From an uncultured Gammaproteobacteria bacterium (GTDB lineage Bacteria > Patescibacteriota > Microgenomatia > CAYXHB01 > CAZYTL01): 64,000 nucleotides of DNA. A model generated the notes under the pieces. The model was given only the letters and a program-made list of their open reading frames with translations. It was not told the DNA's origin and did not search any database. Shown piece after piece: positions 14,261-32,925 of this stretch. Every line of letters begins with the position of its first letter. The stretch's first letter is position 1. A program made the position numbers and the translations under genes. The DNA lies in NCBI GenBank assembly GCA_964650355.1, contig CAZYTL010000002.1, forward strand, positions 109,465-173,464, in the 5' to 3' direction.

Positions 14261-14310
14261 AATGTCCCATATCTCAATTCCTAATCCAATAGTACTACGC
14301 TTACTGTTCC

Positions 14311-14889
14311 CTATTCCACTTCTACCAGTTTAGAAGTCTTGGTTAAACTGGCAATCCACTGCCTTTGAAATTGTTGGAATTTAGACCGCAGAGAGTGATC
14401 AAAGACTAAATTTTCTATTCTCACTAACGCTCCGCCTAAAATGGCGGGTTTGACTTCAACGCTGATAACTACATGACGGTTTAATAACTGCCCAAACTGT
14501 TGGGCAAAATCGCGGACTTCTGACGTTTGTAAGTCAAGAGCCACAGCCATAAAGACAATGCCTATTTTTTCTATCTGTTGCTGAAAGTTTTGCACAAATT
14601 CATCAAAGTAATCAAAATTCTCCGAACTGAATAGCCAAAATTGGTGATCGGCAAATAAGTCAGAAAAGAAATTGTATAATTCTGGCTGGGATACGTCTTT
14701 CAAAAGAAGGAGCAGTTGGGTTTTCTTTTGGCCAGCAGTCAGGGTTTCATCATCCACGATTTGATGGGCATGCATTTTAAAGCCGCGATTACTGGCCAAA
14801 CTTTCTAAGATGGTGGAAACCTGAGATAAGGTTTGGGTGTCATATATCTGTCTGATCAGTGATAGCGATAAACTTTCTATGCCGTTCAT
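14311..14889 (-). CDS. atpH: F-type ATP synthase delta (OSCP) subunit
   Basis: Operon position; C-terminal OSCP-like motif ILGGALVRIENLVFDHSLRSKF. Confidence 0.7.
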   Translation of the reverse strand: MNGIESLSLSLIRQIYDTQTLSQVSTILESLASNRGFKMHAHQIVDDETLTAGQKKTQLLLLLKDVSQPELYNFFSDLFADHQFWLFSSENFDYFDEFVQNFQQQIEKIGIVFMAVALDLQTSEVRDFAQQFGQLLNRHVVISVEVKPAILGGALVRIENLVFDHSLRSKFQQFQRQWIASLTKTSKLVEVE

Positions 14890-14892
14890 AGT

Positions 14893-15423
14893 TTACAATT
14901 TTTGTTTTTCTTCTTTAATTTCGTTAACCGCTCTTTGGATTAGGTCGACTTGATCCGCCCGAGTCAGGCTTTTTTCCACCACTTTTTCACTGACACTGAT
15001 GACTAATTTGACCATTTCTCCTTCTATCTGATGTTGACGTTTTTCACGATAGTCTTCCAATTCTTGGTCAGCACTGGTAAGAATTTCCTGAGATTGTTCC
15101 CGAGCTTGCTTGAGAATGGCTTTTTTCTCTTCTTTAGCGTCCTCAACTATTTGATCATATTCATCCTGGGCCTGATTTTCTAAATTTTCGGCTACATGCT
15201 GCAGCCTTCTAATTAGAGCAAAAGCTTTATCAAGTCTTTCTTCTGTTTCGTTATGGACACGTTTTTGGTGTTCGGCAAGTTGTTTTTTGGCGTGTTCTAA
15301 AAAGGCTACTAACTGTTGTTCGTGTTTGCGGGACCGGCGCCAAAAATAGATCACCAAAATGGCAATATAAAAGACTGTGATTCCAGTATAAATTAACCAA
15401 GTATTATCCATGGGCAGTTTCAA
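14893..15423 (-). CDS. atpF: F-type ATP synthase b subunit
   Basis: Single N-terminal TM (WLIYTGITVFYIAILVIYFW) followed by long charged coiled-coil; operon position. Confidence 0.75.
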   Translation of the reverse strand: MKLPMDNTWLIYTGITVFYIAILVIYFWRRSRKHEQQLVAFLEHAKKQLAEHQKRVHNETEERLDKAFALIRRLQHVAENLENQAQDEYDQIVEDAKEEKKAILKQAREQSQEILTSADQELEDYREKRQHQIEGEMVKLVISVSEKVVEKSLTRADQVDLIQRAVNEIKEEKQKL

Positions 15424-17512: not shown

Positions 17513-18082
17513 ATGAAACAGGAGAAAATCAAGGCAATTATCGATCAATTTGTAACTGATCGCCAAACTATCGACAAAGAAAAACTCAGGCAATATGTTT
17601 TCCAGTCATTAAGTGATTGTCATACCGAAGCTGACTATCTGATCAATAATCCTGAAAATAAAAATCATCTACATCAAATAAATGATCTGTTGGCCCAACA
17701 CCAGCAACCGGAGATTCGTCAATTAGGACTCACAGCCATGGAGAGAATCAACCAACTGCATAAAGAAGTTGAGAGCTGGATTAACGATAACGTTGATTCT
17801 CCGGAAAGATTTGAATTCTCGATTCAAGCTAAAGCCACTGAAATAAGTTCCGGCAACCAGGATTATGATTATTGGGCTGCCTTGACTATTCGGCACGATC
17901 AACTTTTGGCTGCGGTAGTGATCTTCGAAGAAGCGTTGGCAAAGCTGTCCAGCTTGATTCATACGGAGCCAGCAGAAGCGGTTAACTCTCCGGATCTAAA
18001 ATATTTTGCCGAGCACACCAGCCCGGAACGAATTTTTAAGGCAGCGGAGGAGATTTACCAACTCAGGAACCAATTTCATTGA
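17513..18082 (+). CDS. hypothetical cytoplasmic protein
   Basis: 189-aa ORF divergent from ATP synthase operon; no motif recognised. Confidence 0.4.
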   Translation: MKQEKIKAIIDQFVTDRQTIDKEKLRQYVFQSLSDCHTEADYLINNPENKNHLHQINDLLAQHQQPEIRQLGLTAMERINQLHKEVESWINDNVDSPERFEFSIQAKATEISSGNQDYDYWAALTIRHDQLLAAVVIFEEALAKLSSLIHTEPAEAVNSPDLKYFAEHTSPERIFKAAEEIYQLRNQFH

Positions 18083-18837
18083 TATTCAATCGAAGGGATG
18101 GTCATCAAGACTGATGGAAGTGGCTGGCCCTCCAGTGGCTTAGTGGTTAATTTCCAAATTAAATATCCTGCTTGATTACGCTCTGCTCCCTGGATGCTTA
18201 AGACTCGGGAAAATTCTCTCCATGATCCGATATAGCGAGGTCTCTCATAGGTGGTCAATATGTACTGGGCGTCACCTAATTGGTCTGTGTCTTCCAAAAA
18301 GGAGACATGGGCTCCGGTAAACCCTCTGGCCTGAGCTACGGAGTACTCGGTCAGGACTGGTACGGTAACTGGCTGGGACACAAAATCTTTGATGCTTTGA
18401 TAATTAATCTGCTTTTGATAAAGAAATAGTCTGTCTTCCAAGATGTTAAACCAGGACAAATTATCTAAAACCGGATGGACCAACAAAAAGGAAGGAGTCA
18501 CGGCATCTGGTTTGGATTTCAAGGACAACCATAACTGACCGCACTGGGGTTTGCAGAGATATAAAAATTTAATTTTTACGTAGCGTTTGGTAATGGGTAC
18601 TCGGGAATAGAATATGAATTCCGGCGTGGATACCTGCTTGGTTTCGCTTTCAGTGGGTGGCAACAAAGGATCTTTGACTTGACCACCATGAAATGCCGAG
18701 GTGTGTTGATGATTTTGTTCCCAAGCAAAGGCGCGAGGAAAATGATAGTCCAAAAATAATCCCACACCTACTAGACCTAAACCTGTTAAAATTAACCATA
18801 AATTAGATATCGGTAACTTTTCCATTCCGCTGATCAT
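18076..18837 (-). CDS. hypothetical membrane-anchored protein
   Basis: N-terminal TM (LWLILTGLGLVGVGLFL); no motif recognised. Confidence 0.35.
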   Translation of the reverse strand: MISGMEKLPISNLWLILTGLGLVGVGLFLDYHFPRAFAWEQNHQHTSAFHGGQVKDPLLPPTESETKQVSTPEFIFYSRVPITKRYVKIKFLYLCKPQCGQLWLSLKSKPDAVTPSFLLVHPVLDNLSWFNILEDRLFLYQKQINYQSIKDFVSQPVTVPVLTEYSVAQARGFTGAHVSFLEDTDQLGDAQYILTTYERPRYIGSWREFSRVLSIQGAERNQAGYLIWKLTTKPLEGQPLPSVLMTIPSIEYQ

Positions 18838-18857
18838 ATATAACTCGCTTTATTGAT

Positions 18858-20270
18858 ATGAAATTGAAACTTTTTTCCGGAAAACAAATTGTTTATATCT
18901 GGCTCGGCTTTGCAGGGGTGGTGTTGATGCTCCACTTTATTTTAAGACAAATCCGTTACCAGGTTTTTTTTGATATGGACAATTATTGGCCGGTGAGTAT
19001 TTTTTTACCTAAAATCCCTGCTCCCCAAGATGCAGTGATCTTGTTGGGGATAATTCTATTATGGTGGGCATTTTTAAGATACTGGGATTCGGCGCATAAG
19101 TCTATTTGGAAAATCACGTTTCTTATAGGAGCTTTAATAGTTGCCACTACAGCACTTCAGGGAATTAAACAAGGGTTCGTATTTCCCATCACGGGGACAG
19201 GACCGGGATCGATTACCTACTATGTTGATATTCAAGGGATCACCGACCCTGTTAAATTATTAACCAGTTATACCACGATTCAATCGACTTTGCGCGCTCA
19301 CAGCCGAGTCCATCCTCCTGGGGCAATGCTGTTTTCCTATTTACTGGACAAAATTTGGCATGAGCCGATTTTTACCTCAGTGGCTCAAGCTTTGATTGGC
19401 TTGCTAAGCATTCCTTTGCTCTATGGGGTGCTGAGAAAACGTGATGATTCCCAGTGGGCTTTTTTGGGGGCTACGATTTTAGGATTGTTGCCTGCCACCC
19501 AAATTTATTATCTTTCCAGCTTAGATGCGGTGGTGGTTGTAATTTTCTTAATGATTGTTTATCTGGGCTATCAAAAGTTAAATCAGAAGTCTGCTAAACT
19601 TCAGTGGCAATGGCTGATGATCACGGCTGTGATTTTATGGCTGGCTGCGTTCATCTCGTTTGCCGTGCTGGTGTTAATTTCGGTGATACTTTTCATTGAC
19701 TGGCAAAAAAATCAGCGCCTGACCTGGAGTCTTCCTCTGTTGGGCATCACGGTGGCGATTTTTTTTGTAGTTTACAATTTTACAGGGTTTAATTATTTAA
19801 ACAGTCTGGCTATCGCCACCAAATATGAAGGTCCTCCGCAGTTTTATTTGTTGGCTGAGCCTTTGTCTTACGTGGCGACCCGAATAGAAGATTGTCTCGA
19901 GATTCTGGTGTTTTTTACTCCCTGGTTAGCATATCTACTAGTGAGGCAGTTTAAACAGCAAATTCATAAATATAAGCAGGTGTTACTGCCTCGACCGTCC
20001 GTCAATAATTTCAAAAAGTTAGTAAGACAACAGCCAATAATTAATATCGGTTTGGTGGTAGTAGGGGCTCTAATTTTGTTTTTCTTAGCCGGCGCTTACT
20101 ATACCGGCGAAACTGCCAGGGCAGCTAACTTTATTTACCCCTTTCTGATTATGCTGGTTATTCCGATTATAGAGCGAGCTAAACCAGGCGTGCGCGAGCA
20201 AAAGTTGCTCCTGAGTTTGATTTTTCTGCAGACCGTGGTCATGCAAACGTTTGGGTGGTTCGTATGGTAA
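18858..20270 (+). CDS. polytopic membrane protein, GT-C-like (HPPG loop)
   Basis: 470 aa, ~10 TM helices; loop motif RVHPPGAMLF resembles HPPL/HPPG loop of GT39/GT83/DUF2723 enzymes. Confidence 0.4.
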   Translation: MKLKLFSGKQIVYIWLGFAGVVLMLHFILRQIRYQVFFDMDNYWPVSIFLPKIPAPQDAVILLGIILLWWAFLRYWDSAHKSIWKITFLIGALIVATTALQGIKQGFVFPITGTGPGSITYYVDIQGITDPVKLLTSYTTIQSTLRAHSRVHPPGAMLFSYLLDKIWHEPIFTSVAQALIGLLSIPLLYGVLRKRDDSQWAFLGATILGLLPATQIYYLSSLDAVVVVIFLMIVYLGYQKLNQKSAKLQWQWLMITAVILWLAAFISFAVLVLISVILFIDWQKNQRLTWSLPLLGITVAIFFVVYNFTGFNYLNSLAIATKYEGPPQFYLLAEPLSYVATRIEDCLEILVFFTPWLAYLLVRQFKQQIHKYKQVLLPRPSVNNFKKLVRQQPIINIGLVVVGALILFFLAGAYYTGETARAANFIYPFLIMLVIPIIERAKPGVREQKLLLSLIFLQTVVMQTFGWFVW

Positions 20271-20274
20271 CTAG

Positions 20275-22545
20275 CTATTGTAAGGGTGGGGCTTCATCCA
20301 GGGCTTCCAACTGGGTTAAGGCAATGGGATTATCTTTATCGATAAGTAAAACGTGCTGATATTCTCTTTTGGCCAGAGAAGGAAAATCATGGTCATAGTA
20401 CTCTTGAGCCAAGAGGATTCTGGCCTGCACGCTATTCGGTTCTACTAAAGTGGCCAGGAAAATTTTTTCGAAATGACACTGTTGGTTGCCTTGTTGTCCG
20501 CAAACCACTGCTTGTTGAATTAACTGTGCTGCGCTCAAACAGGGTTGTTTTTCCAAGTAGCGGCTATTACCCGGATAATTAGGCAACTGCTTTAATTGAT
20601 TAGTAATGATTCGGTTATTAGGTACTAACAAATCAGCAGCCAAGAGCTCTTTCCTGGCCAACTCTTTTTCCCCCATGCGCGCATAAATGGTGCCATTGTT
20701 AGCCCGATGTTGGGTAAGGGTGGCTAAAAAGGCCATTTGATATAAATTTCGCTGGTCGACTTGGTTAAAGTTTAATTTGTGCCAGTCAGTTTCCTCAGGG
20801 TTGGTCTGGGAAATTTCCGGGGCGGCACAATCTACCTGATTGACATAACCAATGCCGGGATAGAGATAAAAAGCTTGGCCATCCATACCTAACAAATTAA
20901 GGTAAAAAGGAATGATATCAGCCACATAAACTGGTTTGTGTAGACTTACCTGCCAGGAGATGACATCAGCGATCCGGTAAGGGTTGTCTTCATAGTGGAA
21001 CCGGGAAATGGTTTGTTGATCCTGGCCGTGCAAGGTCTGAATTTGCGGAGTGCTGGTGACAATCTTAACGTCTTTTCTGGTTTGGTAAATTGACTGGCTG
21101 GCCAACAAGGAGAAGCAAGACAGATCTGAAAAACAAACTAAGGTGGTCTGCTGAGGCAGGTCAGACAAGACTGTTTGGGCTACTTGGTACGGAGCCTGAT
21201 AATGGCTCAAATTGACTCCCTGATAGTTTTGCCATCCTGAAATGAGGGGCAAAATTAACACGATTAGAGACCAGTAGGGGGAACGCTTAAAGCTAAAAAC
21301 TTTGTTCCTGACAATCAACTCAAACAGACTGGCTAATCCTACACTCAAAAAGATGCCGTAAATAACATAACCCAATAAGTACATTCTCTCGGTGGTGGCC
21401 AGCAACAGATAATATTCGGCCGGTGAAGACCCTCCGGCCGGGATGATCAGATAGGCCGCTAACAACGGTCCGGTCAGTAAAAATAAAGAAAAGAGGCTAA
21501 AGCCGAGGCGCCAGCGAGTTTTAAGAGCGATCACCAATCCCCCGATGGCAATTAAACCCATACCCCACCAGCCAAAGTGGCGAGGTACAGTGGTGCCCAA
21601 GTAGTAAGTCAGAGACCGCCAACTTTCAGGCAAGGAGATGGACTTCCAATAGGCATTAATCACTCGGCCTTCTTCAATGATCACTCCTGAAAAGTCTGAC
21701 CTGGAGATCATATTGACGATGCCTGGCCAACTGCGATCGAACTGCCAGGAAAAAGGATCGTTGGGTGATTGGATGATAAATAATAGTCCGTAACTTAATG
21801 AAAAAGTGATGACTAAGATAAAGACGCTGGCGGCTAGCGTGGCTACCAGGCTCAGCCACTTAAGTTTGCCTTGAGCAGTAAAAAAACGGCCGATTCTGGT
21901 GTCGATCAGCAAGATCAACACGCTGAGAATGAGCAGGACGCTGATCTGTTGATGGGCTAAAGCCAGTCCTAAGGTGAGGCCGAGGAGAAGTAACCAGCTT
22001 TTGACTCTGGCTTTCGCGGCTTTGTCTATTTGCTCTTTTTTCAGATCGTAAGCCTGATAGATTAAGATGGATAAATATATAATTAATAAACTCAAAAAAT
22101 TATTTAAAGGAAAAACTTCGAGCACGTTGGCGTATAACCAAAACAAAAACGACAGACCCAGCAACAAACTACCGCTGGCAAAAAGAATTAATTTGTCCGG
22201 AGAGGTAATTTTTTTCTTCTCAATTAGTTCTCCTACGGCTACCGAAATTAAAAAAACCAGACCTACGCTGAGAGCTTGGAACAAAGCTGCTAATAAATGG
22301 GCCCGAAAAGCAATTCCTCCGGGAATGGGCAAGTGAGTAACAAAGTATACCAAGAAGGTTTGCAAAGGATATCCTGGAGGATGGGGAACGGCCAAATTAT
22401 AACCGGTGGCGATCAGTTCGTCAGAATCGCCATAAGCTACGGGAGTCCGGGCTGCGGTAGTGATGTAAATACCCAAGCAGAGTAACACCAAGCCAACAAA
22501 AAACTTTTTTTTCATAAAGGGCGATGGGCCGTATTTGACTATCAA
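20275..22545 (-). CDS. DUF2723/TMEM260-like GT-C membrane glycosyltransferase-like protein with C-terminal TPR (tandem paralog 1 of 5)
   Basis: N-terminal motif YGDSDELIATGYNLAVPHPPGYPLQ; >10 TM; conserved CFSDLSCFSLL motif; C-terminal TPR-like helices. Confidence 0.6.
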   Translation of the reverse strand: MIVKYGPSPFMKKKFFVGLVLLCLGIYITTAARTPVAYGDSDELIATGYNLAVPHPPGYPLQTFLVYFVTHLPIPGGIAFRAHLLAALFQALSVGLVFLISVAVGELIEKKKITSPDKLILFASGSLLLGLSFLFWLYANVLEVFPLNNFLSLLIIYLSILIYQAYDLKKEQIDKAAKARVKSWLLLLGLTLGLALAHQQISVLLILSVLILLIDTRIGRFFTAQGKLKWLSLVATLAASVFILVITFSLSYGLLFIIQSPNDPFSWQFDRSWPGIVNMISRSDFSGVIIEEGRVINAYWKSISLPESWRSLTYYLGTTVPRHFGWWGMGLIAIGGLVIALKTRWRLGFSLFSLFLLTGPLLAAYLIIPAGGSSPAEYYLLLATTERMYLLGYVIYGIFLSVGLASLFELIVRNKVFSFKRSPYWSLIVLILPLISGWQNYQGVNLSHYQAPYQVAQTVLSDLPQQTTLVCFSDLSCFSLLASQSIYQTRKDVKIVTSTPQIQTLHGQDQQTISRFHYEDNPYRIADVISWQVSLHKPVYVADIIPFYLNLLGMDGQAFYLYPGIGYVNQVDCAAPEISQTNPEETDWHKLNFNQVDQRNLYQMAFLATLTQHRANNGTIYARMGEKELARKELLAADLLVPNNRIITNQLKQLPNYPGNSRYLEKQPCLSAAQLIQQAVVCGQQGNQQCHFEKIFLATLVEPNSVQARILLAQEYYDHDFPSLAKREYQHVLLIDKDNPIALTQLEALDEAPPLQ

Positions 22546-22632
22546 ATGCTATTGTCAATGGTTAGGTGGTAAATGTCAAATGATTGACGAGTACTTTAAT
22601 TTATTAAAGAGATAATTATGTTCATGAACTGA

Positions 22633-24846
22633 TTAATTAAAATTCAATTTTGATTTGGCGGTCTGATTTTCCGGATCCAGATGCAAAATGTTTTGGTATT
22701 CTACTTTAGCCATGACATGATCGTTGATTTTCTCGTATATCTCGGCCAAGAGAAGGCGGAGGCGGATAGACTCGGGGTGACGGAAAGTCCCGGCCAGGGC
22801 GCCGATAAAAGCGGGTTTGAGATCGTTGGCTTGGAGATAATGATTAACTGCCTCGGCGATGGCATCCGGACCGGCGGTGGACGCAAGGGAAAGTTGGCCA
22901 TAAGGATGCAAGGGTGGAAGTTGATCAACTGAGGGTAGGTGTTGATAAGCATCTGGAAGTTGACTGGTCAGGCTCTGGGCTTGGTCCAGATCTGTCTGAG
23001 CCATCTGGGGATGATCAAGCTGGCGATAGGTTCGAGCGTTAAAAGTATGGATATAAGCAAGTGAGGCTTTGAATTGCAAGCGCATGGGGTCTTGAGGAGG
23101 AAAAATCTGACGCGAGACGGCCTGGGAAAGTTGATAGTCAGGAACGGGCAGTGGCGAGGGTGGGGTAGTAACCAGCTCGCCAAAATATCCATGAGGAATG
23201 TAGTAGAAAAATCCGTAATCCAGCCCCAGATAGTCATAATATCTACCATGAAGATCGATGATAAAGGTACGACGGTGATCTAAGTCCCAAGTAGCGTAGT
23301 CAAGTAGAAGGAAAGGATTGAAAGGATAATCAAATCCGTGGAGTTCAGGATGGTGGTTTAATTGGGAAAGGACCAATGGGTAGGCTGAAGGAATCAGAGT
23401 AATATCGGGACGGGTTTGAGTGACGAATTGATCGTATAACAAAGCAAAACAACTGATATCGCTCAGACAAATTAACCGGGAGTTTTCAGGTAATTGATTT
23501 AAGACGGTGTGGTAATAGTTATGGATGAGATCAAAGGATTGCAAATTGGCCCGCGGATAAATTTGGCTGCTTCTCCAGATAATAGCGACAGTGACGATTA
23601 ACAAGCAGAGATTGATGATCAAAGTTTGGGGAAAATGTTTTTTTATCACAGACAGAAAGGTAAATAAGCCGAGGGCGATAATTAAAGGAGTCAAAGTGTA
23701 ACCGAAGAGAAATAGTCTGATTAACATGGCCTGGCTGGCCAAATCAGGCGGCCAGTCAAGGTAAAGAGGAATACCAGCAAAAGCAGGGACCGTTAAAAGT
23801 AGACTCATCCAAACCAAGTGATGCTTAATCCAAAGAAAGGAGAAAAGTCCTAAGACGATTAACAAGCTAGTAGTTAATCCAAAATCCGACCAGACCTGAT
23901 GAGCGTACACGGGAATTTGGTTAAGGATTTTTTCTAAAGAGATGTTCATGATGAACAGCGGCCGAGGTTTACCAGTAGCCACGATTTCGCTGGCCACTTG
24001 TTTTCTGGTCAGCTGATCAATCAATCCTGAAAAGCTGGGCGTAAATCTCCAGCTCACAGGCGCGGAAGTGGAGTTTAAAGCCAACATCAGGCCAAGAGAG
24101 ATCAGGACTGAAAAAATGAAACCAGCAATGAGAACCCGAATCTGAAGAATAGAAATGGAGGTGCGGGTACGCCAGAGCAAGTAGCTAATGGCCGGGAGGA
24201 GCAGCAGGAAAGTGTAATGATACATGATTCCCAAGCCGGTGGTGATTCCCAGTAAGAGCCAGAGTTTTATTGATGATGATGAGGTTCGGATCAGCTTAAG
24301 GATGATTAATGCTGTGCAAGCTACCAGGAAATCGTGCAAGGGATATTTTTCTGCGATGTGGCTATAGAGCCAGAAGTGAAAGGAAACGCCCAAACTGGCA
24401 GTGCCGATGATGCCAAAGATCAGTGGATCCAATTTAGGGGAAAACACCGGAGTAAGTTTTTTCAGGGCGAGCAACCCGCCAATTAGCTCATTAATAGCCA
24501 GAAATAACACGGAAAGGGTCAAACCATGAAGCAGACTACTGAGTAAATGAGCGCGAAAAGCCACGGTACCGGGAAGAGGAAGATGGGTGGCGGTATAGAG
24601 CAAAAGGCTATAAAGAGCATACCCGGGCGGGTGAGCCAGACCCAAATGGTAGCCAACAGTGATCAGTAAGTCAGAATCAGCGTAGGAAACATTGGTGCGG
24701 GGAGCAGTAAGAGTATAGAGCAGGAAGAAGGTGATAAAAATAATCACTGCGATAGAGGGTACAGGATTTGATTTCAAAAAGGTTAAAAGAGATTTAGTAA
24801 TAACACGGTGAGGGTTACCGGTCGATTGATGTTTGGTCATGGTCAA
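22633..24846 (-). CDS. DUF2723/TMEM260-like GT-C membrane protein with C-terminal TPR (paralog 2 of 5)
   Basis: YADSDLLITVGYHLGLAHPPGYALY; LICLSDISCFALLYDQ; TPR-like C-terminus. Confidence 0.6.
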   Translation of the reverse strand: MTMTKHQSTGNPHRVITKSLLTFLKSNPVPSIAVIIFITFFLLYTLTAPRTNVSYADSDLLITVGYHLGLAHPPGYALYSLLLYTATHLPLPGTVAFRAHLLSSLLHGLTLSVLFLAINELIGGLLALKKLTPVFSPKLDPLIFGIIGTASLGVSFHFWLYSHIAEKYPLHDFLVACTALIILKLIRTSSSSIKLWLLLGITTGLGIMYHYTFLLLLPAISYLLWRTRTSISILQIRVLIAGFIFSVLISLGLMLALNSTSAPVSWRFTPSFSGLIDQLTRKQVASEIVATGKPRPLFIMNISLEKILNQIPVYAHQVWSDFGLTTSLLIVLGLFSFLWIKHHLVWMSLLLTVPAFAGIPLYLDWPPDLASQAMLIRLFLFGYTLTPLIIALGLFTFLSVIKKHFPQTLIINLCLLIVTVAIIWRSSQIYPRANLQSFDLIHNYYHTVLNQLPENSRLICLSDISCFALLYDQFVTQTRPDITLIPSAYPLVLSQLNHHPELHGFDYPFNPFLLLDYATWDLDHRRTFIIDLHGRYYDYLGLDYGFFYYIPHGYFGELVTTPPSPLPVPDYQLSQAVSRQIFPPQDPMRLQFKASLAYIHTFNARTYRQLDHPQMAQTDLDQAQSLTSQLPDAYQHLPSVDQLPPLHPYGQLSLASTAGPDAIAEAVNHYLQANDLKPAFIGALAGTFRHPESIRLRLLLAEIYEKINDHVMAKVEYQNILHLDPENQTAKSKLNFN

Positions 24847-24950
24847 GAGGAATGTTGTCTTGATTAAATTTCACTGGTATCCAAAATTGTCATTGTCTGG
24901 AACCGATGGTTAATTTGGGTAAGAATAACGAAATTTGATTTTTCACCACT

Positions 24951-27077
24951 TTAATTAATTAAAGTGGTTATTTTGGCTAACACCTGTTGTTCCTCCGTGG
25001 CTTTGGCTTCTTGATGAGTTTGGATGTAAATCTCTATCAACTTTTTCCTGGCGGAAATAAGATGGGGATCTTTTAACACGGCTCTTTGGTATGCCCAAAC
25101 AGCTCCCTGAAGATCACTGTTCCTTTCCGCCCGGCTACCCTGGTCAAACCATTGCTGAGCAGTCAGAGGCGCTTGTTGGTTATATTCTGATAATTGGCCG
25201 GAATTGATATAAGCCAGGGTTTTAGTGATCTCTTGTTGATTATGAGGCAGGCGCACCAATTGAGAGGCAATTTGAATATGTGCAAAAGCCCCTTCCGGGC
25301 TACCAAGCCGACCATAATAGTAAGCCAGGGTGGTATGGATTTTGGCCAAATTTCCTAACCAACCCAAATCCCAATCATCAAACTTCTGGTGCTCGGCAAT
25401 ATTGGCTAACTGGGCGGTGAGTCCGTAATCATAATCTTTAATCTGTCCGGCAGGAGTAAGATTCACTTCAATGGTATAGCCATAAGGCCTGGCATAAAAA
25501 GGATTAGCTTCCAAACCCAAGACTTCCAGTCCGGATGTATCAGGATCGAATAAATAGACCTGGCGGTGTTGAGACAAATTCCAGGACACTAAATGGGCTA
25601 GCTGATCCTCTCTTGAACCATAGTATTGACTGTATCCCAATAATTCCTGACCCTGGTGCTGAAAATATGGCCAGCGCATCTGTACAGTTAGAGGAACAAT
25701 CTTAAGATCGGTTCTGAAAGAATTAACTAACTGTTCATAGAGCAGGCCAAAAACCGAGTCGGAATCAACAATCAACACCGCGTTTTCGGGTAAGCTCTGC
25801 AAAATATTTCTAGAAAAATAGTAAGTAAAATTATTATGTTTAAAATTTACCGACCGATAATTGATAAAGATGGGCAAACCTACCAGTAATAAAATGGTGA
25901 CAATTCTCAAGTACTGTTTAATTTTATGGAGTTTTAATTTGGCGAAATAATCAAATAACTCCCCTACGCCGACCACTACGGGGATAGCGAATAGAAATTT
26001 ACTCATTAACAACATTCTTTCTCTCAAGGCCCAGCCCCAATAATAACCCTGATCACTGTTATTGAGGGTTTGGGGGAATTTCATAAACATAGCCAGGCCG
26101 ACGCCGGACACCAGCCAGCTGATTAACCACAGCCAGCCAAAAGCGCGGTGTTTTTTATAGAGATACCTGACGCCTAAAATTGCCAATCCGATGCCGATAA
26201 ATAAATATTCTTTGGTTAAGAGAAGAAGATATTGCCAGACGGCCAATAAAGATCTGAAGGGTTCCCAGCGGTAGGCGTCTAATTCCACGGCTGACCCGGC
26301 TGCGGTGTAAATGCGACGACTGATCATGTCAATTAATCCTGAGAAACTGGGGTCAAAATACCAGGAAAATTGAGCCTGATGCCCATAATAAATCCATAGC
26401 AGGCTATAAGGCAGCACAAAGCCTAACAAACTTATGCTGGCAAACATTAATCTCAGCCTCTGACTGTTAATGCGGTAAATTAACCAAAGCCAAAAAGGCA
26501 AGAGTAATAAAAAGATTTGGTGGTGGGACGCTCCTAAACCAAAAACAGCTCCGGTGGCTGCCAACCAGACTCGATGGTGACTAAGATTCGTCTGATGAGT
26601 CAATTTGATAAATAACCAGATAAACCAAATAGCTAGCAAGTGGCTGAAAGGGAAAACTTCGGCAACGTTGGCGTGGAACCAAAAACTATAAGTAAAACCC
26701 ACAAACAAAGTGCCGCTGACTAAAGCCCAAAATTTTCCTTTACGAGTGGTTAGTAGTTGGGAGGCCACGCTATACAAACCCACCAAGCTTAAACTTTGGA
26801 ATAAGGCTGAGGACAAATTTGTTTTAAAAGCGATGCTAGCGCTAAGGGGCAACCGCATAAATCCCTGTAATAACAAGGTGTATAGGGGATATCCTGGCGG
26901 ATGAGCAATTCCTCCGGTGTAGGCAGCCGTGACTAACTCATCAGAATCAGCATAGTTAAGGTGAAGTCTGGCTGCGGTTTGTGAGTAAACTAAAAACGAT
27001 AATCCAAAAACTACTAAAACACCTGACAACCAGGCGTGTTTTTTAAAGAAACGAGTAATCAACTGAAGTCTAACCAT
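24951..27077 (-). CDS. DUF2723/TMEM260-like GT-C membrane protein with C-terminal TPR (paralog 3 of 5)
   Basis: YADSDELVTAAYTGGIAHPPGYPLY; polytopic; TPR-like C-terminus. Confidence 0.6.
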   Translation of the reverse strand: MVRLQLITRFFKKHAWLSGVLVVFGLSFLVYSQTAARLHLNYADSDELVTAAYTGGIAHPPGYPLYTLLLQGFMRLPLSASIAFKTNLSSALFQSLSLVGLYSVASQLLTTRKGKFWALVSGTLFVGFTYSFWFHANVAEVFPFSHLLAIWFIWLFIKLTHQTNLSHHRVWLAATGAVFGLGASHHQIFLLLLPFWLWLIYRINSQRLRLMFASISLLGFVLPYSLLWIYYGHQAQFSWYFDPSFSGLIDMISRRIYTAAGSAVELDAYRWEPFRSLLAVWQYLLLLTKEYLFIGIGLAILGVRYLYKKHRAFGWLWLISWLVSGVGLAMFMKFPQTLNNSDQGYYWGWALRERMLLMSKFLFAIPVVVGVGELFDYFAKLKLHKIKQYLRIVTILLLVGLPIFINYRSVNFKHNNFTYYFSRNILQSLPENAVLIVDSDSVFGLLYEQLVNSFRTDLKIVPLTVQMRWPYFQHQGQELLGYSQYYGSREDQLAHLVSWNLSQHRQVYLFDPDTSGLEVLGLEANPFYARPYGYTIEVNLTPAGQIKDYDYGLTAQLANIAEHQKFDDWDLGWLGNLAKIHTTLAYYYGRLGSPEGAFAHIQIASQLVRLPHNQQEITKTLAYINSGQLSEYNQQAPLTAQQWFDQGSRAERNSDLQGAVWAYQRAVLKDPHLISARKKLIEIYIQTHQEAKATEEQQVLAKITTLIN

Positions 27078-27089
27078 GACAGACCCATT

Positions 27090-29321
27090 TTAAATGTTAT
27101 CTTCTAAATGTTTCAATTCATCAACAGCGGGCTGGAAGTCAGGATGATATTGTAAAATATTCTTCACCTCTTGTAGGGCTTCCTGAAAAAAGCCGCCTTT
27201 TTCATATACCTGGACCAGTTGCCAACGGGGTTCCACGGCTAACGGTTCCAGAAAGGTGGCTTTGAGCAATAATTTATACGCCTGATCTAATTCAAATTGA
27301 TCTATTAATTTTTTGGCTTGAGCCAGATACTCTTGGCTAGACTTTCCTTGAGAACCGGTTTGGTAGTCCTGCTTGCCTTGATAGGCGGATAATTGACTGA
27401 GTAATCTGGCCGGTTCCGGATAGCGGGGACTCAAAGAGGTGGCATAAGCGTAATTCTTGCGGGCTTGATCATGGTTGCCCAGATAAGCATAGATGGTACC
27501 GGTTAAGGTATGAAAATTGGCTAAATAGTCTTTAAATCCGGAAAGTAAATAGTTTCGGGGATCAATATGCATGGCGATCAGGTCCGCGGTAGGCTGATAA
27601 TCGAATTCACCAATCTGGTCAGGCACTCGGGTGACTACCTGATATAAATAACCGTGAGGAATTAAGAAAAAAGGATTTCCTTCCAAACCCAGATAGTCGA
27701 TATAAAAAGCAGAGGCTTCGGTAATGTAGGTAGGCCGATAGTGCAGGTTCCAGCTGGTCAGGTCAGCACTGAAATAAGGATTATCCTGATAGGTAAATCC
27801 GCGATATTGGGGGTGAGTTTCCAGAAAATAGCGGCGATAATGGCTATTTTTAATCAGCAAAGTGACATCGGGGCGCAAACCTTCCACTTGTTGCTCATAA
27901 AAAAGACTAAAACAGGAGACGTCGGCAAAACATAGAATCACGGCATTATCCTCTACTGAATTCAGGACTGATACGGCGTACTGATGGACAATGGAATTAT
28001 CCCTTTGATTAGCTATAGAAAAGTTTTCCACAAAGGGGTAAGCCGCCAAAATCAAGAGCCCGAGCAACAAGATATAGCTGAAAAGCTGAGATTTGAATCG
28101 GTGCAAGAAAGCACTTCCCAGCCACCAAAAACCCACCCCGATGGCCAGACCCCAAATTAACTCGCCTAGTAAGTATTGGCGATGGTTGATGCCGATCAGG
28201 GTTCGATATTCAAGATTTTGAGGTGTATTTTCAGGCAAACCTAAGCGGCCGGCAAACCAAACTCCGGCTACCAACCAACAGACTAACCAAAAGCAGCCTA
28301 AATAAAGTCTTTTTTTGAACAGCCAGATGGCGCCTAGTAATCCCAAGATCACTCCCAGATAAGTGAAGTGAGCAATTAAAAATCCGGGATATTGACTGAT
28401 TGCCTGAAAGAAAACTTCTTTACTGGTTCCCAATCCGTAAGCGCTCACATTGATGCCTTTATCAGGGATGAAACCGCTAAAATCCTTGCGAGTGATCATT
28501 CCGTACCAGCCCCAGAAGTTCTGACTAAATGCCCAAGAAAAGGCTGCTTTTTTGGCATTCAACCAGAAGAGCAACAAGTTGGGGAGGATGAAGCCTGCCA
28601 GTGCGGCCGCCAGGCTGATGATGACCGGCTGCCAACGCCAATAGACCAGCCACTTTTTTCGAAGATAAATGGTGAGCCCTCCCAGGAGTAGTAACCCGGG
28701 GAACAGCAAAGCAAACACGTGCAAATGCGACATGCCTAAACCAACTAATAAGCTGGTTAGCACCAGCCATTTAAATTCTAATGCGGTAAGTTTTTTCTCC
28801 TGTTTACTTGCCATGGCGGATTTCCTCCAATACAGAGCGGATAAAATGGTTAAGGCGGCGAACAGATTATTTAACGCCCCCACCTCGATCACTGACGCAT
28901 ACAGCCAAAATAGGGCTGAAAATCCTAAAACTAAGGCCCCGGCTGCAGATGCCAAGTGTTGCCAGGCAATCAGATGGGGCTTTGATTTTGGCTGGCTGCC
29001 AATGAGTTCCAAACCGATGAAATAAGCGAGCACCACGGTCAGGGCCTGCAAGACCGAACTTAACAGATGAGCTTTGAAAGCAGGACTGCCTGAAACGGGT
29101 AGCTGTAGAAAAAGGTGGATTAAAATTACTTGCAAAGGATAGCCTGAAGGATGAGGCACACCCAACAAATACCCAGTGGTAATTAACTCATCAGAGTCGG
29201 CATACCCCAGGTTTACTCTTCCGGCAGTATATGAATAAATCCCGAGAACAATGATAAATATGCTGAGAGGGAAGAGCCAACGAAGATTCCTCTGAGAAAA
29301 AAATCGGCCCATAAAGCTCAT
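27090..29321 (-). CDS. DUF2723/TMEM260-like GT-C membrane protein with C-terminal TPR (paralog 4 of 5)
   Basis: YADSDELITTGYLLGVPHPSGYPLQ; ILCFADVSCFSLFYEQ; TPR-like C-terminus. Confidence 0.6.
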   Translation of the reverse strand: MSFMGRFFSQRNLRWLFPLSIFIIVLGIYSYTAGRVNLGYADSDELITTGYLLGVPHPSGYPLQVILIHLFLQLPVSGSPAFKAHLLSSVLQALTVVLAYFIGLELIGSQPKSKPHLIAWQHLASAAGALVLGFSALFWLYASVIEVGALNNLFAALTILSALYWRKSAMASKQEKKLTALEFKWLVLTSLLVGLGMSHLHVFALLFPGLLLLGGLTIYLRKKWLVYWRWQPVIISLAAALAGFILPNLLLFWLNAKKAAFSWAFSQNFWGWYGMITRKDFSGFIPDKGINVSAYGLGTSKEVFFQAISQYPGFLIAHFTYLGVILGLLGAIWLFKKRLYLGCFWLVCWLVAGVWFAGRLGLPENTPQNLEYRTLIGINHRQYLLGELIWGLAIGVGFWWLGSAFLHRFKSQLFSYILLLGLLILAAYPFVENFSIANQRDNSIVHQYAVSVLNSVEDNAVILCFADVSCFSLFYEQQVEGLRPDVTLLIKNSHYRRYFLETHPQYRGFTYQDNPYFSADLTSWNLHYRPTYITEASAFYIDYLGLEGNPFFLIPHGYLYQVVTRVPDQIGEFDYQPTADLIAMHIDPRNYLLSGFKDYLANFHTLTGTIYAYLGNHDQARKNYAYATSLSPRYPEPARLLSQLSAYQGKQDYQTGSQGKSSQEYLAQAKKLIDQFELDQAYKLLLKATFLEPLAVEPRWQLVQVYEKGGFFQEALQEVKNILQYHPDFQPAVDELKHLEDNI

Positions 29322-31510
29322 TTAGGAAACATTCCCAAGGCTGATTTGGCCTGTTGATTATTAGGGTCTAATAATAAGACGTTTAAAAACTCTTGACGCG
29401 CGAATTCGCTTTCACCCATTTGTAAATAAATACCGGCTAGTTGCAAGCGGGCTGGCACGCTGTGAGGATTGCCTGTGACAGCGCCCCAGGTGAGCAAGTG
29501 GGCCAGATCCAGACGGTTATTGGAGGCTTGTTGATTGGCTCCATCGAGCAAAGCCTGGGTGTCGGGAATGACGGCTCCGGGTTTAAACCGAATGTCAGGA
29601 TTGGAAAATTCTATGTCTTTCCGAATGGCGTCTACGTTTTCTAGTCCAGGCATTTGGTAAAACAGATTTGAGGCCAGGTTAAGTTCCTGACGAGCAAAAT
29701 CGCGATAACCGGCTTTGACATAAATAACGCTGTTAAACACCTGCTGTCTGGCAGCATTGGCTTTCATCCACACCTGCATCTGGCTGATGGTAGGCGGGTT
29801 AACTGCTAACAATTGTTGGCCTAAGGTTTGGTCTACCCGCGAGAGTTGATCAGGCATGGTTTTAACCAGTCGGCCATAATTGCCATGAGGCACGTAAAAC
29901 AAAAATCCGTTATTAATCCCCAATAAATCATAATAAGTACTGGTCAGGTCCACCACGTAAACTGGGCGCTGATCTATGTTCCAGGTGAGATAATCATAAA
30001 TCAAATAGGGATTGGCTGGATAGGCAAACTTGTGCAGATCTGGTTTTTGATCCAGTTTGTCTTTAACTAAGGGGTAAGCCGTGGGCAGGATAATGACATC
30101 CGGTCGGGTTCTCAGGATGGTTTGCTGGTATAACAAAGCAAAACAGGTGGTGTCGGAAAAACAAGCCAGTAGGCTGTTGGGTTCGACTTGGTTTAATATT
30201 TGGCCATAAAAGTCAGTAGTGATGGCAGCGGTTTGATAATTGATTTGGGAATTGACGGTTTTGATTCGCCAGGCCACGACTGCTAATAAGAGCAAAATTA
30301 AAATCGGGCCCGAGGTTTTCTGTTTGTTGGCCAGCACAGCCAAACCCCGCATTAAACGATGGGCCACCAGTAATAAACCCGGAGCCAAAAGCAAAGGCAG
30401 CCACATAAAGCCCAATAAGTATTGCCGGCTGTTATTGGCTTGCTGCCCGATATGCTGAGGCCAGCCCATCATGCCTACCAAGGCAACTCCTGTGCTTAAA
30501 TAGCCGATCAGGATGAGGACAAACAGTTTTTTATGATGGGCATAGACAGTCAGTAAACCAACCACGACAACTAAGACTACCAGCCAGCCAAAGTATTGGG
30601 TGATTAAGTGAAAGTAAGGAGGCAAGGCGGCCTGTAATTTGGCCCAGTTTAATTGAGCAAAGTAAGCATGGGTTTGTTCTCCGGTTTCCACCAAAGTGCC
30701 GGAAAATTCCTGACGGAAGATCATCCTCATTAAGCCGTTGACGCCGGGATCTATGTGCCAGGAAACCGGCGCTCCCCGGGAGGCAAACCACCAGAGGAGC
30801 AAAAAGGGGACCAAAAATCCGACCAGACCTGTAAACATCATTCTGATCAGGACATGAATGTTGAGTTGTTGTTTGTTCCAGAGCATGAGCAACAAGACCG
30901 CGGGCAGCATGAGCACCACGGTTTGGTGGTGAGATAAAGCCAGACCAAAGAGAAAGGAGAGCCGGATCCACCATTTAGCAGTGATGATTTCTGGCTGGAG
31001 TAAACCTAGAACCAGCAGGTAGATGATGACGGACACGAACAGGTTGTTCAAAGCAAAGACTTCGGTAATGGTGCTGTATTGCCAAAACAAGAAGGAGGCT
31101 CCTAAAAAGCTGGTACTGACAAAGGCGATTAGCAATTTTCCTCCGGGTGTGGACCAAAAAGATTTTTTAACCACTTTCCTGGTCCAGTAATCAACAATTT
31201 GCCAACAGGTGGCAAAAACAAAAGCCAGACTCAGGCTACCCAAAAAGGCGCTGAGTAAATGGCCTTTAGTGGCCACTGACAGTCCCAGAGGCAAGTGAGT
31301 AAACAAGAAAAGTAATAAAATGTACAAGGGATATCCTGGAGGGTGGGCTACTCCTAAGTGATAACCAACGGTTAGTAATTCGTCTGAATCAGCAAACCCG
31401 ATGTTGGTGGCGGGTAGGGTTCTGAGGTAGAAAAACAAGTAGAAGATGGCTACTGCGATCATGCCGTAGGCCAAAGGAGACTCAAATATCCGACTAGACC
31501 GGCCTTTCAT
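29318..31510 (-). CDS. DUF2723/TMEM260-like GT-C membrane protein with C-terminal TPR (paralog 5 of 5)
   Basis: FADSDELLTVGYHLGVAHPPGYPLY; LACFSDTTCFALLYQQ; stop overlaps next gene start by 4 nt (ATGA). Confidence 0.6.
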   Translation of the reverse strand: MKGRSSRIFESPLAYGMIAVAIFYLFFYLRTLPATNIGFADSDELLTVGYHLGVAHPPGYPLYILLLFLFTHLPLGLSVATKGHLLSAFLGSLSLAFVFATCWQIVDYWTRKVVKKSFWSTPGGKLLIAFVSTSFLGASFLFWQYSTITEVFALNNLFVSVIIYLLVLGLLQPEIITAKWWIRLSFLFGLALSHHQTVVLMLPAVLLLMLWNKQQLNIHVLIRMMFTGLVGFLVPFLLLWWFASRGAPVSWHIDPGVNGLMRMIFRQEFSGTLVETGEQTHAYFAQLNWAKLQAALPPYFHLITQYFGWLVVLVVVVGLLTVYAHHKKLFVLILIGYLSTGVALVGMMGWPQHIGQQANNSRQYLLGFMWLPLLLAPGLLLVAHRLMRGLAVLANKQKTSGPILILLLLAVVAWRIKTVNSQINYQTAAITTDFYGQILNQVEPNSLLACFSDTTCFALLYQQTILRTRPDVIILPTAYPLVKDKLDQKPDLHKFAYPANPYLIYDYLTWNIDQRPVYVVDLTSTYYDLLGINNGFLFYVPHGNYGRLVKTMPDQLSRVDQTLGQQLLAVNPPTISQMQVWMKANAARQQVFNSVIYVKAGYRDFARQELNLASNLFYQMPGLENVDAIRKDIEFSNPDIRFKPGAVIPDTQALLDGANQQASNNRLDLAHLLTWGAVTGNPHSVPARLQLAGIYLQMGESEFARQEFLNVLLLDPNNQQAKSALGMFPK

Positions 31511-31615
31511 TACTTTTCAGTATATACCAATTATTGAAATTCAGGAATAATCAACCTTAATGTAGCATCAGTGTCACTGGAAGTTAGACATGGTGGCTTA
31601 GGTTATAATTAATTT

Positions 31616-32164
31616 ATGAATGGCGACTACAAAGTACTTAAGGAGGAAGTTACTACTTCCCCGAATAATCATAAATACAAACTGGTGGATGCGGTCATTC
31701 GTACACCTGCGGGTAAGGAAGTAGATTGGGAGTATATTAAGGCCCGAGATGGGGTAACGATTGTGGCGATTAACAGTAAAAATCAGATTTTTGTAGTTCG
31801 TCAATGGCGCCCGGCGAGAAAAGATTATGTTTGGGAGCTGCCCGCAGGAGGGATCGAAATAGAACACCCGACCTTAGAGCGGGTTTTTCAAAATGCCAAC
31901 CGAGAGCTTCAGGAAGAAATAAGCTTTAAGGCTAACAAAATAGAATTGTTGTCATCTTTCTCCCCTGCCATTCATATGGCCTGCACTTATTATGTGGTGC
32001 TAGCCAGAGACTTAGAGGCAAGTCCCCTGCCCAATGGGGCAGATGAGAAAATAGAAACCAAAGCGATGCCTTTTGATGAAGCGTTTGATCTGTTAGTCAA
32101 TCGAGAATTGCCTTCGGCTTCAACATTGGTAGGGATGATATTGGCGAAGCAACGCCTTGGGTGA
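31616..32164 (+). CDS. Nudix hydrolase (ADP-ribose pyrophosphatase-like)
   Basis: Nudix box AGGIEIEHPTLERVFQNANRELQEEISF (GX5EX7REUXEEXGU). Confidence 0.65.
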   Translation: MNGDYKVLKEEVTTSPNNHKYKLVDAVIRTPAGKEVDWEYIKARDGVTIVAINSKNQIFVVRQWRPARKDYVWELPAGGIEIEHPTLERVFQNANRELQEEISFKANKIELLSSFSPAIHMACTYYVVLARDLEASPLPNGADEKIETKAMPFDEAFDLLVNRELPSASTLVGMILAKQRLG

Positions 32165-32385
32165 ATTACAGCAGGAGTTTCTAGTGGAGGTGAATTGACG
32201 GGAGGGTTAAATTTCTCTTATGATGAAAAGGTAATGATTTTTTGATGAATGGTGATGTGTGAAAGTCCACCTAATCTTCCTTCAAGCCTTAGTAGGGGCG
32301 GCGTGAAGAGCGATTATGGCGGACCTCATACTATTTAATAGTTTAATCGCAAGTATAAAAAGGAATTCGGAAGGGAGGTGAGAGC

Positions 32386-32925
32386 ATGGCAAAGAAAAAT
32401 CAAGGCATGAATCATGTGCATGTAGGGATGTTGGTCTTAGTCGGGGTGCTGTTGGGAGTATTTCTCACCTTAGGAGCCGCGAGCTGGGGAGAATCACAAA
32501 CCTTGCGAGCCAAGTCCGGCTTTGACGAGTTTGGCTACAACTATAATGCAAAACTCTTTAATGGTCCGGCAGACGGAGTAGACAGAAATTTGGATGACAA
32601 GGTGTGGGGAGACCCTGTTTATGCCAAAGACCATTTGACCATGAAGTGGTCGCCGGCATGGAATGACGCCCGATTCGGGCAAGAAGCCTGGAATTGTGAT
32701 GCCTGGACAGACAATCACTGGAACGGAAAAGTTCCTGGGGGCAGTGGTGAAATCTGGCATTATAAGATTGTGTGGGTGGGCCCGGAGTTACAGCAAAGTT
32801 CTTGTTGGCGAGCAGGCGGTTATCCGATCTGGGGGCAATTCGAAGTAATTTTCTCCCAAGGGACAGTGGCTAACCAGCATTTCTGGGAAACTCATGCTTA
32901 TCCGGCTGGATACGGTGGATTCTAA
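32386..32925 (+). CDS. secreted Trp-rich hypothetical protein
   Basis: N-terminal signal/TM (VHVGMLVLVGVLLGVFLTLGAA); strong SD GGGAGGTGA upstream; no family recognised. Confidence 0.35.
   Translation: MAKKNQGMNHVHVGMLVLVGVLLGVFLTLGAASWGESQTLRAKSGFDEFGYNYNAKLFNGPADGVDRNLDDKVWGDPVYAKDHLTMKWSPAWNDARFGQEAWNCDAWTDNHWNGKVPGGSGEIWHYKIVWVGPELQQSSCWRAGGYPIWGQFEVIFSQGTVANQHFWETHAYPAGYGGF

Follow-up and report, generated by a model that had tools for sequence, protein, structure and literature searches.

A tandem array of five diverged TMEM260-like GT-C glycosyltransferase homologues in a putative Patescibacteria genome

Introduction

Why would a bacterium keep five related, membrane-embedded glycosyltransferase-like genes next to one another, and what might their products glycosylate? 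TMEM260 was recognized as a protein O-mannosyltransferase in 2023, and its structure followed in 2026 (PDB 9RQL, 9RQM, 9RQN). PglB, ArnT and AftB are bacterial GT-C enzymes with solved structures, and for many bacterial GT-C enzymes, among them ArnT, the Emb and Aft proteins and PimE, the acceptor is a lipid or polysaccharide and not a protein. The literature searched contained no study of a bacterial TMEM260/DUF2723/PF11028 member, and its matches to 'PF11028' were Plasmodium gene names. Because no characterized bacterial homologue was found there, what we propose below about donor, sugar and acceptor draws on analogy with the human enzyme.

The array lies in a 64-kb stretch of DNA, hereafter the window. 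The closest named relatives of the window's proteins belong to Candidatus Beckwithbacteria and the Microgenomates group; placed via these relatives, the host appears to be a small, uncultured bacterium of the Patescibacteria (CPR), Microgenomates-type.

Results

Five adjacent genes encode TMEM260 homologues

A sequence-only reading of the window had described five adjacent minus-strand genes for proteins of 708–756 residues, next to one plus-strand gene. All six open reading frames were recovered:

18858..20270, plus strand: 470 aa; all-membrane GT-C-fold protein of an unnamed family
20275..22545, minus strand: W1, 756 aa from TTG or 746 aa from the ATG at 22515
22633..24846, minus strand: W2, 737 aa from TTG or 735 aa from the ATG at 24840
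24951..27077, minus strand: W3, 708 aa; the most divergent of the five paralogs
27090..29321, minus strand: W4 ('b' type), 743 aa; second gene of a conserved a–b pair
29318..31510, minus strand: W5 ('a' type), 730 aa; TMEM260-like GT-C enzyme, first gene of the conserved a–b pair

The ATG starts of W1 and W2 are the gene calls in a public copy of the contig. All five paralog reading frames are intact. The ATGA overlap noted earlier for one gene pair is seen at 29318–29321 (AAATGAGC), where the ATG of W4 overlaps the TGA stop codon of W5. The stop codons of W1 and of the plus-strand gene, which are convergent, lie 4 nt apart. Scans for promoters and terminators across positions 18000–32500 returned counts no higher than the shuffled expectation and are therefore not taken as evidence of an operon; neither Rfam nor tRNA searches matched anything in the 64-kb window.

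All five minus-strand proteins match PF11028 (TMEM260-like, DUF2723) with E values of 1.2e-27, 4.8e-25, 1.2e-28, 1.1e-25 and 2.6e-29 for W1 to W5. Their scores of 88.8–102.7 bits exceed the gathering threshold of 24.2 bits (whole-protein score). A five-sequence profile aligned to the human TMEM260 chain 9RQL_A with an E value of 8.9e-39, over profile positions 18–480 and chain residues 30–470, a span that takes in the entire membrane core and the beginning of the luminal domain. The earlier assignment to the glycosyltransferase-like DUF2723 family is thus upheld: judged by sequence, the five TPR-tailed GT-C glycosyltransferase homologues are of the TMEM260/DUF2723 type and clear members of a known enzyme family. 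Together with the structural matches described below, these results rule out a transporter identity. Two of the five reached 20 and 17.9 bits against PMT_2, below its cut-off of 26.1 bits, and the Pfam search gave no match to the MIR domain in any of them.

Both motifs that the sequence-only reading had drawn up are present in all five proteins, but as consensus strings they are only approximate. The first, containing DSDEL and HPPGYPL, fits letter for letter only in W5; W2 has DSDLL in place of DSDEL and PGYAL in place of PGYPL, and W4 has HPSGY. In W3, the second motif reads VDSD-SVFG and is devoid of both cysteines that flank the catalytic aspartate. The first motif corresponds to the sugar-recognition loop and the second to the catalytic-base strand.

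Domain order and functional residues are those of human TMEM260

In an AlphaFold model of one paralog (pLDDT 95), the GT-C membrane core is followed by a five-strand alpha/beta (Rossmann-like) domain and then by a TPR tail. Human TMEM260 shares this domain order. The TPR tails previously ascribed to the five proteins are upheld. In the model, the catalytic aspartate (Asp453) comes after the strand formed by residues 447–450. The closest structural matches, in fold libraries that contain no TMEM260 coordinates, are PMT-family protein transferases.

According to a cryo-EM preprint (10.64898/2026.03.17.711096), human TMEM260 activity is abolished by D52A, R264A, Y267A and D441A and by mutation of H67, and is lowered by R355A; Asp441 is the general base. 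Asp52 and His67 lie in the first external loop, Arg264 and Tyr267 in the donor-loading loop and Arg355 in helix 10. At the positions of D52, H67, R264, R355 and D441, all five paralogs carry the human residue, and in an alignment of 58 sequences, a vertebrate TMEM260 among them, conservation at these positions is 90% or higher. In the order D52, H67, R264, Y267, R355 and D441 of the human enzyme, the equivalent residues are:

W1: D40, H55, R282, F285, R387, D474
W2: D57, H72, R281, V284, R377, D463
W3: D44, H59, R254, Y257, R354, D440
W4: D42, H57 (in HPSGY), R278, F281, R381, D467
W5: D41, H56, R266, F269, R362, D453

The position of the mannose-contacting Tyr267 is a tyrosine only in W3; it is a phenylalanine in W1, W4 and W5 and a valine in W2, which suggests that the transferred sugar may not be mannose. 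Further differences set the paralogs apart from the human enzyme, although both belong to the same Pfam family and share the five residues. Sequence identity is only ~21–25%, and the catalytic aspartate is flanked by RGDLPGN in human TMEM260 as opposed to CFSDxSCF in the paralogs. The human enzyme is encoded by a single gene and uses a dolichol carrier, whereas there are five paralogs in the window and their lipid carrier must be a bacterial polyprenol.

Mean identity between the paralogs is 59% in the sugar-recognition loop, 32% in the alpha/beta domain, 29% in the membrane core and 22% in the TPR tail. In human TMEM260, the preprint reports, the TPR tail recruits the acceptor peptide and the aspartate of the alpha/beta domain lies against the acceptor threonine (10.64898/2026.03.17.711096). 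That the TPR tail is the most diverged part would fit diversified acceptor recognition, without proving it.

The plus-strand neighbor is a GT-C-fold protein of another family

The gene at 18858–20270 had been listed as a sixth membrane protein with an HPPG loop. Its product does carry the sequence RVHPPGAM at residues 150–157, matches solved GT-C enzymes structurally and is a GT-C-fold membrane protein, but it is not a sixth paralog. It has no Pfam (including PF11028) or NCBIfam match, and hhalign against the five paralogs gave a probability of 42%, over the HPPG stretch and the following helices only. Members of its family share a separate set of invariant residues: G102, Q142, H148, H152-P-P-G155, R342, E348, G417-E-T419, R421, P428, Q463 and W470. 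In two other loci (L088 and L094), orthologues of W1 and of this gene stand side by side with a NUDIX gene in between.

The paralogs are old, and two of them form a conserved pair

The alignment and trees proposed along with the sequence-only reading separate the five proteins into five lineages that are 27–32% identical to one another. Grouping of the window paralogs was recovered in 0 of 100 bootstrap replicates of one tree and in 0.5% of the 200 replicates of another. Instead, W1 to W5 each cluster with proteins of other Patescibacteria genomes (bootstrap 98, 90, 100, 100 and 98.5), their orthologues being 36–45% identical to them. W1 groups with L001_9947, P0017 and a 754-aa gene product of L094 (bootstrap 94.5–98), W2 with P0013 (bootstrap 90), and W4 with the second gene of pairs in other genomes (bootstrap 100, 39–44% identity). 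W3 had seemed an orphan in a word-indexed search, where its best match was 30% identical. This was overturned by an exhaustive homologue search, which provided full-length W3 orthologues (P0269–P0274; 35–41% identity, clade bootstrap 100). One of these, P0269, adjoins the ATP synthase operon of a Candidatus Beckwithbacteria MAG, where it is the third copy. Bacterial homologues of TMEM260 are numerous, with 8,863 cluster representatives matching at E ≤ 0.001 in the exhaustive search. Since each paralog has its own orthologues elsewhere, five old lineages lie side by side here, not copies made locally. By these relationships, the five genes are old, distinct paralogs, and the 'local amplification' proposed earlier is contradicted. 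Copy number in related loci, a check suggested at the same time, is mostly one, in some cases two or three; five local copies occur only in the window. The sole DNA-level repeat in the region is an 82-nt stretch encoding the first motif, present in five copies ~2250 nt apart that are 61–71% identical.

The W5–W4 type of tandem pair, a followed by b in the same order and on the same strand, occurs in L002, L082 and L084–L087, which together with the window makes seven loci. The a–b junction is a 4-nt overlap in the window and in L087, and the gaps in the other loci are at most 64 nt. The a and b lineages are kept together across genomes that are only about 40% identical. In other genomes, genes of the W1 and W3 types are found singly.

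Gene neighborhoods and candidate donors and acceptors

P0062 and P0072 are natural fusions in which a GT2 domain is joined to a TMEM260-like protein. Four of the five best NCBIfam matches of the fused GT2 domain are polyprenyl-phosphate sugar synthases (AglJ, PgfS, ArnC-type and PpgS), at scores below the curated cut-offs. No polyprenyl-phosphate sugar synthase was found in the 64-kb window. Its only GT2 gene (37172–38191) was considered as a donor maker and rejected, the product being PgaC/IcaA-like and not a polyprenyl-phosphate sugar synthase. In L088 and L089, the GT2 genes beside the homologues had mixed matches, all below threshold. Homologues in related genomes have GT4, GT2, glycogen-type and deacetylase genes as neighbors.

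The acceptor sequon proposed for human TMEM260, located in Ig-like IPT domains, is P-x5-P-x3-G-P-x2-G/A-G-G-x2-T/S. Neither this IPT-domain sequon nor its core, GP..[GA]GG..[TS], is present in window ORFs of at least 80 aa, which represent 64 kb of the genome. The window also encodes candidate acceptors, namely an Ig-like, Pro/Thr-rich protein (15428–17467) and secreted proteins (2718–5687), and, besides the five paralogs, it contains three further GT-C-type genes. In the product of another gene (5853–7700), a membrane domain is directly followed by strong TPR repeats.

Discussion

We favor, at a probability of roughly 55%, the reading that the array encodes five distinct, catalytically competent TMEM260-like GT-C enzymes that would carry out protein O-glycosylation from polyprenyl-phosphate sugars, most likely on different acceptors. 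Each protein comprises an ~11-helix membrane core, an alpha/beta (Rossmann-like) domain and a TPR tail, the latter two being placed outside the cytoplasmic membrane by analogy with human TMEM260. The membrane core is predicted to bind a polyprenyl-phosphate-linked sugar, with the sugar and phosphate held by the aspartate of DSDEL, the histidine of HPPGY and two arginines. A secreted or surface protein could then be gripped along an extended stretch by the TPR tail and the alpha/beta domain. The conserved aspartate of the C-F-S-D-x-S-C-F strand would deprotonate a serine or threonine, which would then take the sugar. As old paralogs, two of them in a conserved and tightly coupled pair, the enzymes would most likely serve different acceptor sequences. 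The results show the family, the fold, the kept functional residues, the age of the paralogs and the conserved pair; protein acceptors, a lipid-phosphate sugar donor, the sugar itself and differing specificities are inferred. The GT2 fusions lend indirect support to such a donor. Against the reading stand the lack of a polyprenyl-phosphate sugar synthase in the 64-kb window and of the human acceptor sequon in its ORFs, as well as the lipid or polysaccharide acceptors of many bacterial GT-C enzymes.

The same proteins might instead be active GT-C transferases with non-protein acceptors (an envelope glycopolymer, peptidoglycan or a glycolipid), in the manner of ArnT, Emb/Aft and PimE, the TPR tail serving as a protein–protein docking module. 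The GT4, GT2, glycogen-type and deacetylase genes beside homologues in related genomes are in line with this idea, as is the fact that no acceptor protein was identified. We nevertheless consider it unlikely: the aspartate that abuts the acceptor threonine in human TMEM260 is invariant in the paralogs, the peptide-gripping luminal architecture of the human enzyme is kept, and the best structural matches are protein transferases. It is likewise doubtful that the a–b pair, perhaps with more of the five, is an obligate hetero-oligomer like yeast Pmt1–Pmt2 or human POMT1–POMT2, in which case gene number would reflect subunits, not specificities. The identical order and strand of a and b in seven loci, their overlapping or closely spaced junctions and the joint retention of both lineages across genomes this diverged all point toward such a complex, and PMT-family enzymes, the closest structural matches, are described as obligate dimers (PMC12705809). 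Yet a and b each keep the full catalytic residue set, genes of the W1 and W3 types stand alone in other genomes, and the available text of the cryo-EM preprint describes a single TMEM260 molecule and makes no mention of an oligomer (10.64898/2026.03.17.711096).

A far less probable view, which we regard as very nearly dismissed, is that the genes arose by tandem amplification in the recent past, were put together in error during assembly or are redundant copies in decay. In its favor, the five genes share a strand, are alike in length and are evenly spaced, but their proteins are too dissimilar, their DNA similarity is confined to the 82-nt repeat, and each gene has orthologues elsewhere. All frames are intact with catalytic residues kept, and two contigs show the same arrangement: one of 46.9 kb, assembled separately from run SRR14802573, and one of 174 kb from NCBI.

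Several known systems invite comparison with the paralogs. The PMT/POMT enzymes (GT39; Pmt1–Pmt2, Pmt4) share with them an acidic residue in the first external loop and, if the donor analogy holds, the use of a lipid-phosphate-mannose donor, and likewise form paralog families with different clients. They differ in having a luminal MIR domain where the paralogs have an alpha/beta domain and TPR, and the PMT_2 scores of the paralogs are sub-threshold; a further difference is the catalytic base of TMEM260, which is reported to lie in the soluble domain (10.64898/2026.03.17.711096). TMTC1–4 (GT105, cadherin O-mannosyltransferases) also combine a GT-C membrane domain with a subsequent TPR region and exist as several paralogs with specialized protein clients (PMC10214176). 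However, they show no sequence-family match to the five proteins, and a Rossmann-like domain between membrane core and TPR tail is a TMEM260 feature; the TMTC layout is comparable to that of the separate window gene 5853–7700. PglB (an N-oligosaccharyltransferase), ArnT (lipid A modification) and AftB (arabinan synthesis) differ in family, soluble domains and acceptors, and none has a TPR tail.

Five intact, diverged copies within more than 11 kb of a reduced genome, together with three further GT-C-type genes, probably indicate a heavy reliance on surface glycosylation. As natural variants with a common catalytic core and differing TPR and alpha/beta modules, the five proteins provide a panel for studying acceptor choice in this enzyme class. 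More speculatively, and in our view improbable as a whole, the five enzymes, perhaps with neighboring GT-C genes, could constitute a bacterial protein O-glycosylation system with specificity for domains or sequons, in which each TPR/alpha-beta module reads a different extended motif in the surface proteins of this episymbiont-type bacterium, for instance in the protein encoded at 15428–17467, and a and b act as a heterodimer. If this were true, TMEM260-type client-specific O-mannosylation would originate in bacteria, and the array would offer a set of naturally diversified acceptor-recognition modules.

Arrangement and family of the paralogs

Six long ORFs make up the region 18858-31510, and their coordinates are exactly those proposed from sequence alone. 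Five of them, W5, W4, W3, W2 and W1, follow one another in the same orientation on the minus strand; W5 and W4 share the ATGA overlap already seen in that reading, and the remaining neighbors (W4/W3, W3/W2 and W2/W1) are separated by 12, 104 and 87 nt. The sixth, on the plus strand, is convergent with W1, and the two stop codons lie 4 nt apart. At 24945-24968, a perfect palindrome (ACCACTTTAATTAATTAAAGTGGT, arms of 10 bp) overlaps the stop codon of W3, at the edge of the 104-nt gap to the next paralog.

Genes of the array and proteins of other genomes that cluster with them in neighbor-joining trees
29318-31510, minus: W5, 730 aa; first genes of tandem pairs (bootstrap 98.5, core clade)
27090-29321, minus: W4, 743 aa; second genes of tandem pairs (bootstrap 100)
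24951-27077, minus: W3, 708 aa; P0269-P0276 (bootstrap 100)
22633-24846, minus: W2, 735 aa from ATG (gene call, public contig copy); P0013 (bootstrap 90)
20275-22545, minus: W1, 746 aa from ATG (gene call, public contig copy); L001_9947, P0017 and the 754-aa gene of locus L094 (bootstrap 94.5-98)
18858-20270, plus: all-membrane GT-C-fold protein of its own family

All five minus-strand proteins match PF11028 (TMEM260-like, formerly DUF2723) in Pfam with E values of 1e-25 to 1e-29; their PMT_2 matches in Pfam are sub-threshold, and NCBIfam has no model for them. A five-paralog profile matches the human TMEM260 chain 9RQL_A over profile positions 18-480 (E 8.9e-39), and its positions from about 580 to 724 match consensus TPR proteins and the TPR domain of OGT. 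These matches bear out the earlier description of TMEM260-like GT-C enzymes with TPR tails, which can be refined to the catalytic residues. By its named relatives, the organism belongs to the Microgenomates group of the Patescibacteria.

Functional residues and putative sugar donor

A cryo-EM preprint on human TMEM260 places D52 and H67 in a sugar-recognition motif between helices 1 and 2, R264 and Y267 in a donor-loading loop, R355 in helix 10, and the catalytic base, D441, in a luminal Rossmann-like domain (10.64898/2026.03.17.711096). Because the chain numbering in our profile alignment to 9RQL_A equals the published residue numbering, motif 1 (DSDEL...HPPGYPL, first external loop) includes D52 and H67, and motif 2 (CFSDxSCF) includes D441. 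D52, H67, R264, R355 and D441 have invariant equivalents in the five paralogs; across 58 aligned sequences, a shark TMEM260 among them, these positions are at least 90% conserved. The Y267 position alone varies (Phe in W1, W4 and W5, Val in W2, Tyr in W3), so that, judged by sequence, none of the five looks dead.

With Phe or Val in place of the Tyr that contacts mannose, the sugar may be one other than mannose. The 64-kb window contains no polyprenyl-phosphate sugar synthase; its GT2 gene at 37172-38191 (plus) is PgaC-like. Indirect support for a lipid-phosphate sugar as the putative donor comes from TMEM260-like proteins that are naturally fused to a GT2 domain (P0062 and P0072): of the five top NCBIfam matches of the fused domain, four are to polyprenyl-phosphate sugar synthases (AglJ, PgfS, ArnC-type and PpgS), all matches falling under the curated cut-offs. 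The region 37172-40024 (plus), a PgaC/IcaA-like GT2 synthase (E 2.3e-38, under the curated cut-off) followed by a polysaccharide deacetylase-GH18 fusion, looks like a small module that would make a poly-N-acetylglucosamine or chitin-like polymer and trim it.

Age of the paralogs

The sequence-only reading took the array for a local amplification. Pairwise identity among W1-W5 is 27-32%, the sole DNA repeat is an 82-nt stretch coding for motif 1 (61-71% identity), and in bootstrapped neighbor-joining trees every paralog clusters with proteins of other genomes, a clade of window paralogs only being absent from all 100 replicates of one run and present in 0.5% of the 200 of the other. The group of W3 (35-41% identity, full length) was seen only in an exhaustive search, having been missed by a word-indexed one. 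We conclude that the array consists of five old orthologue groups, including a conserved gene pair, rather than the products of local amplification.

Copy number in relatives, which that reading had left to be checked, was surveyed at 80 loci from species-representative genomes, with flanks of up to 10 kb where the contig allowed. Most loci have one local copy, one (L002) has two in tandem and two Elusimicrobia/Endomicrobia loci (L031 and L066) have three; five occur only here. The tandem pair of a W5-type gene followed by a W4-type gene is conserved in closer relatives (L082 and L084-L087), its members overlapping or at most 64 nt apart. In the source of L082, a Candidatus Beckwithbacteria MAG (GCA_012797845.1), a W3-type gene directly adjoins the ATP synthase operon, some 9 kb away from the pair; in L088 and L094, a W1-type gene adjoins an orthologue of 18858-20270. 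The five lineages are thus old in this clade, and in this genome they are contiguous.

In L082, L085, L086 and L087, one flank of the pair carries glycogen-type genes (GH57, GT5/GT4 and alpha-amylases), and the other a conserved series of genes for uncharacterised proteins, some of which give weak dockerin or WxL-type hits; surface proteins associated with the pair may be encoded there.

Neighboring genes and candidate acceptors

Two further genes of the window encode polytopic membrane proteins that are related to GT-C enzymes. The product of 5853-7700 (plus) has strong TPR repeats (TPR_2, E 9e-18) after about ten membrane helices and matches the TMEM260-like profile with an hhalign probability of 98.6%; that of 8018-9688 (minus), which lacks a Pfam hit, matches it at 96%. 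With the five paralogs and 18858-20270, this makes eight GT-C-type genes in the 64-kb window.

The 679-aa protein encoded at 15428-17467 (minus) is anchored in the membrane by its N terminus and contains Big_1 Ig-like domains as well as a Pro/Thr-rich linker (TPTPTQAPSPTPTTTATPTPSTVPTITPTPTITPTP); the linker makes it a plausible O-glycosylation acceptor. At the C terminus is a hairpin with a match to the ATP synthase c subunit (E 3.9e-6); its helix 2, where c subunits normally carry the ion-binding carboxylate, has no acidic residue by eye. The gene heads an ATP-synthase-like operon, continued at 9885-15423 by a b-like gene, delta, a 664-aa alpha, gamma and beta, near which there is no a-subunit gene. 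L093 and L094 repeat the block, including a Big_1 protein of 658-671 aa and a GT-C gene of the 18858-20270 type; a canonical a-c-b-delta-alpha-gamma operon is also present in a related MAG. The adjoining genes 2718-4481 (minus, 587 aa) and 4578-5687 (minus, 369 aa) encode secreted, Ser/Thr-rich proteins with no Pfam hit and a common C-terminal domain of about 170 aa ending in ...YQPAD.Y.G.LVYN..PTY; both may lie at the surface and act as glycosylation acceptors. Elsewhere in the window, 52052-58744 (plus) encodes a 2230-aa bacterial alpha-2-macroglobulin whose bait-region and A2M domains are separated by a HINT/intein-like module (PT-HINT, residues 1409-1528, E 3e-18), and lies just downstream of a PBP1C-type penicillin-binding protein gene (49729-51990, plus).

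Divergence and acceptor specificity

The literature that could be searched contains no study of bacterial TMEM260 homologues, and the function of W1-W5 in bacteria is presumed by analogy. They are further members of a known family, packed together unusually densely. Mean identity among them is highest in the sugar-recognition loop (59%), followed by the alpha/beta domain (32%), the membrane core (29%) and the TPR tail (22%), the tail reaching 32-40% inside orthologue groups. Among columns fixed in both the W5-type and W4-type groups, the two differ at 6 of 21 in the alpha/beta domain and 1 of 33 in the membrane core. Human TMEM260, according to the preprint, uses its TPR and alpha/beta domains to bind the acceptor peptide (10.64898/2026.03.17.711096). 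The pattern of divergence thus fits, short of proof, the diversified acceptor specificities suggested earlier: W1-W5 may each recognize different acceptors.
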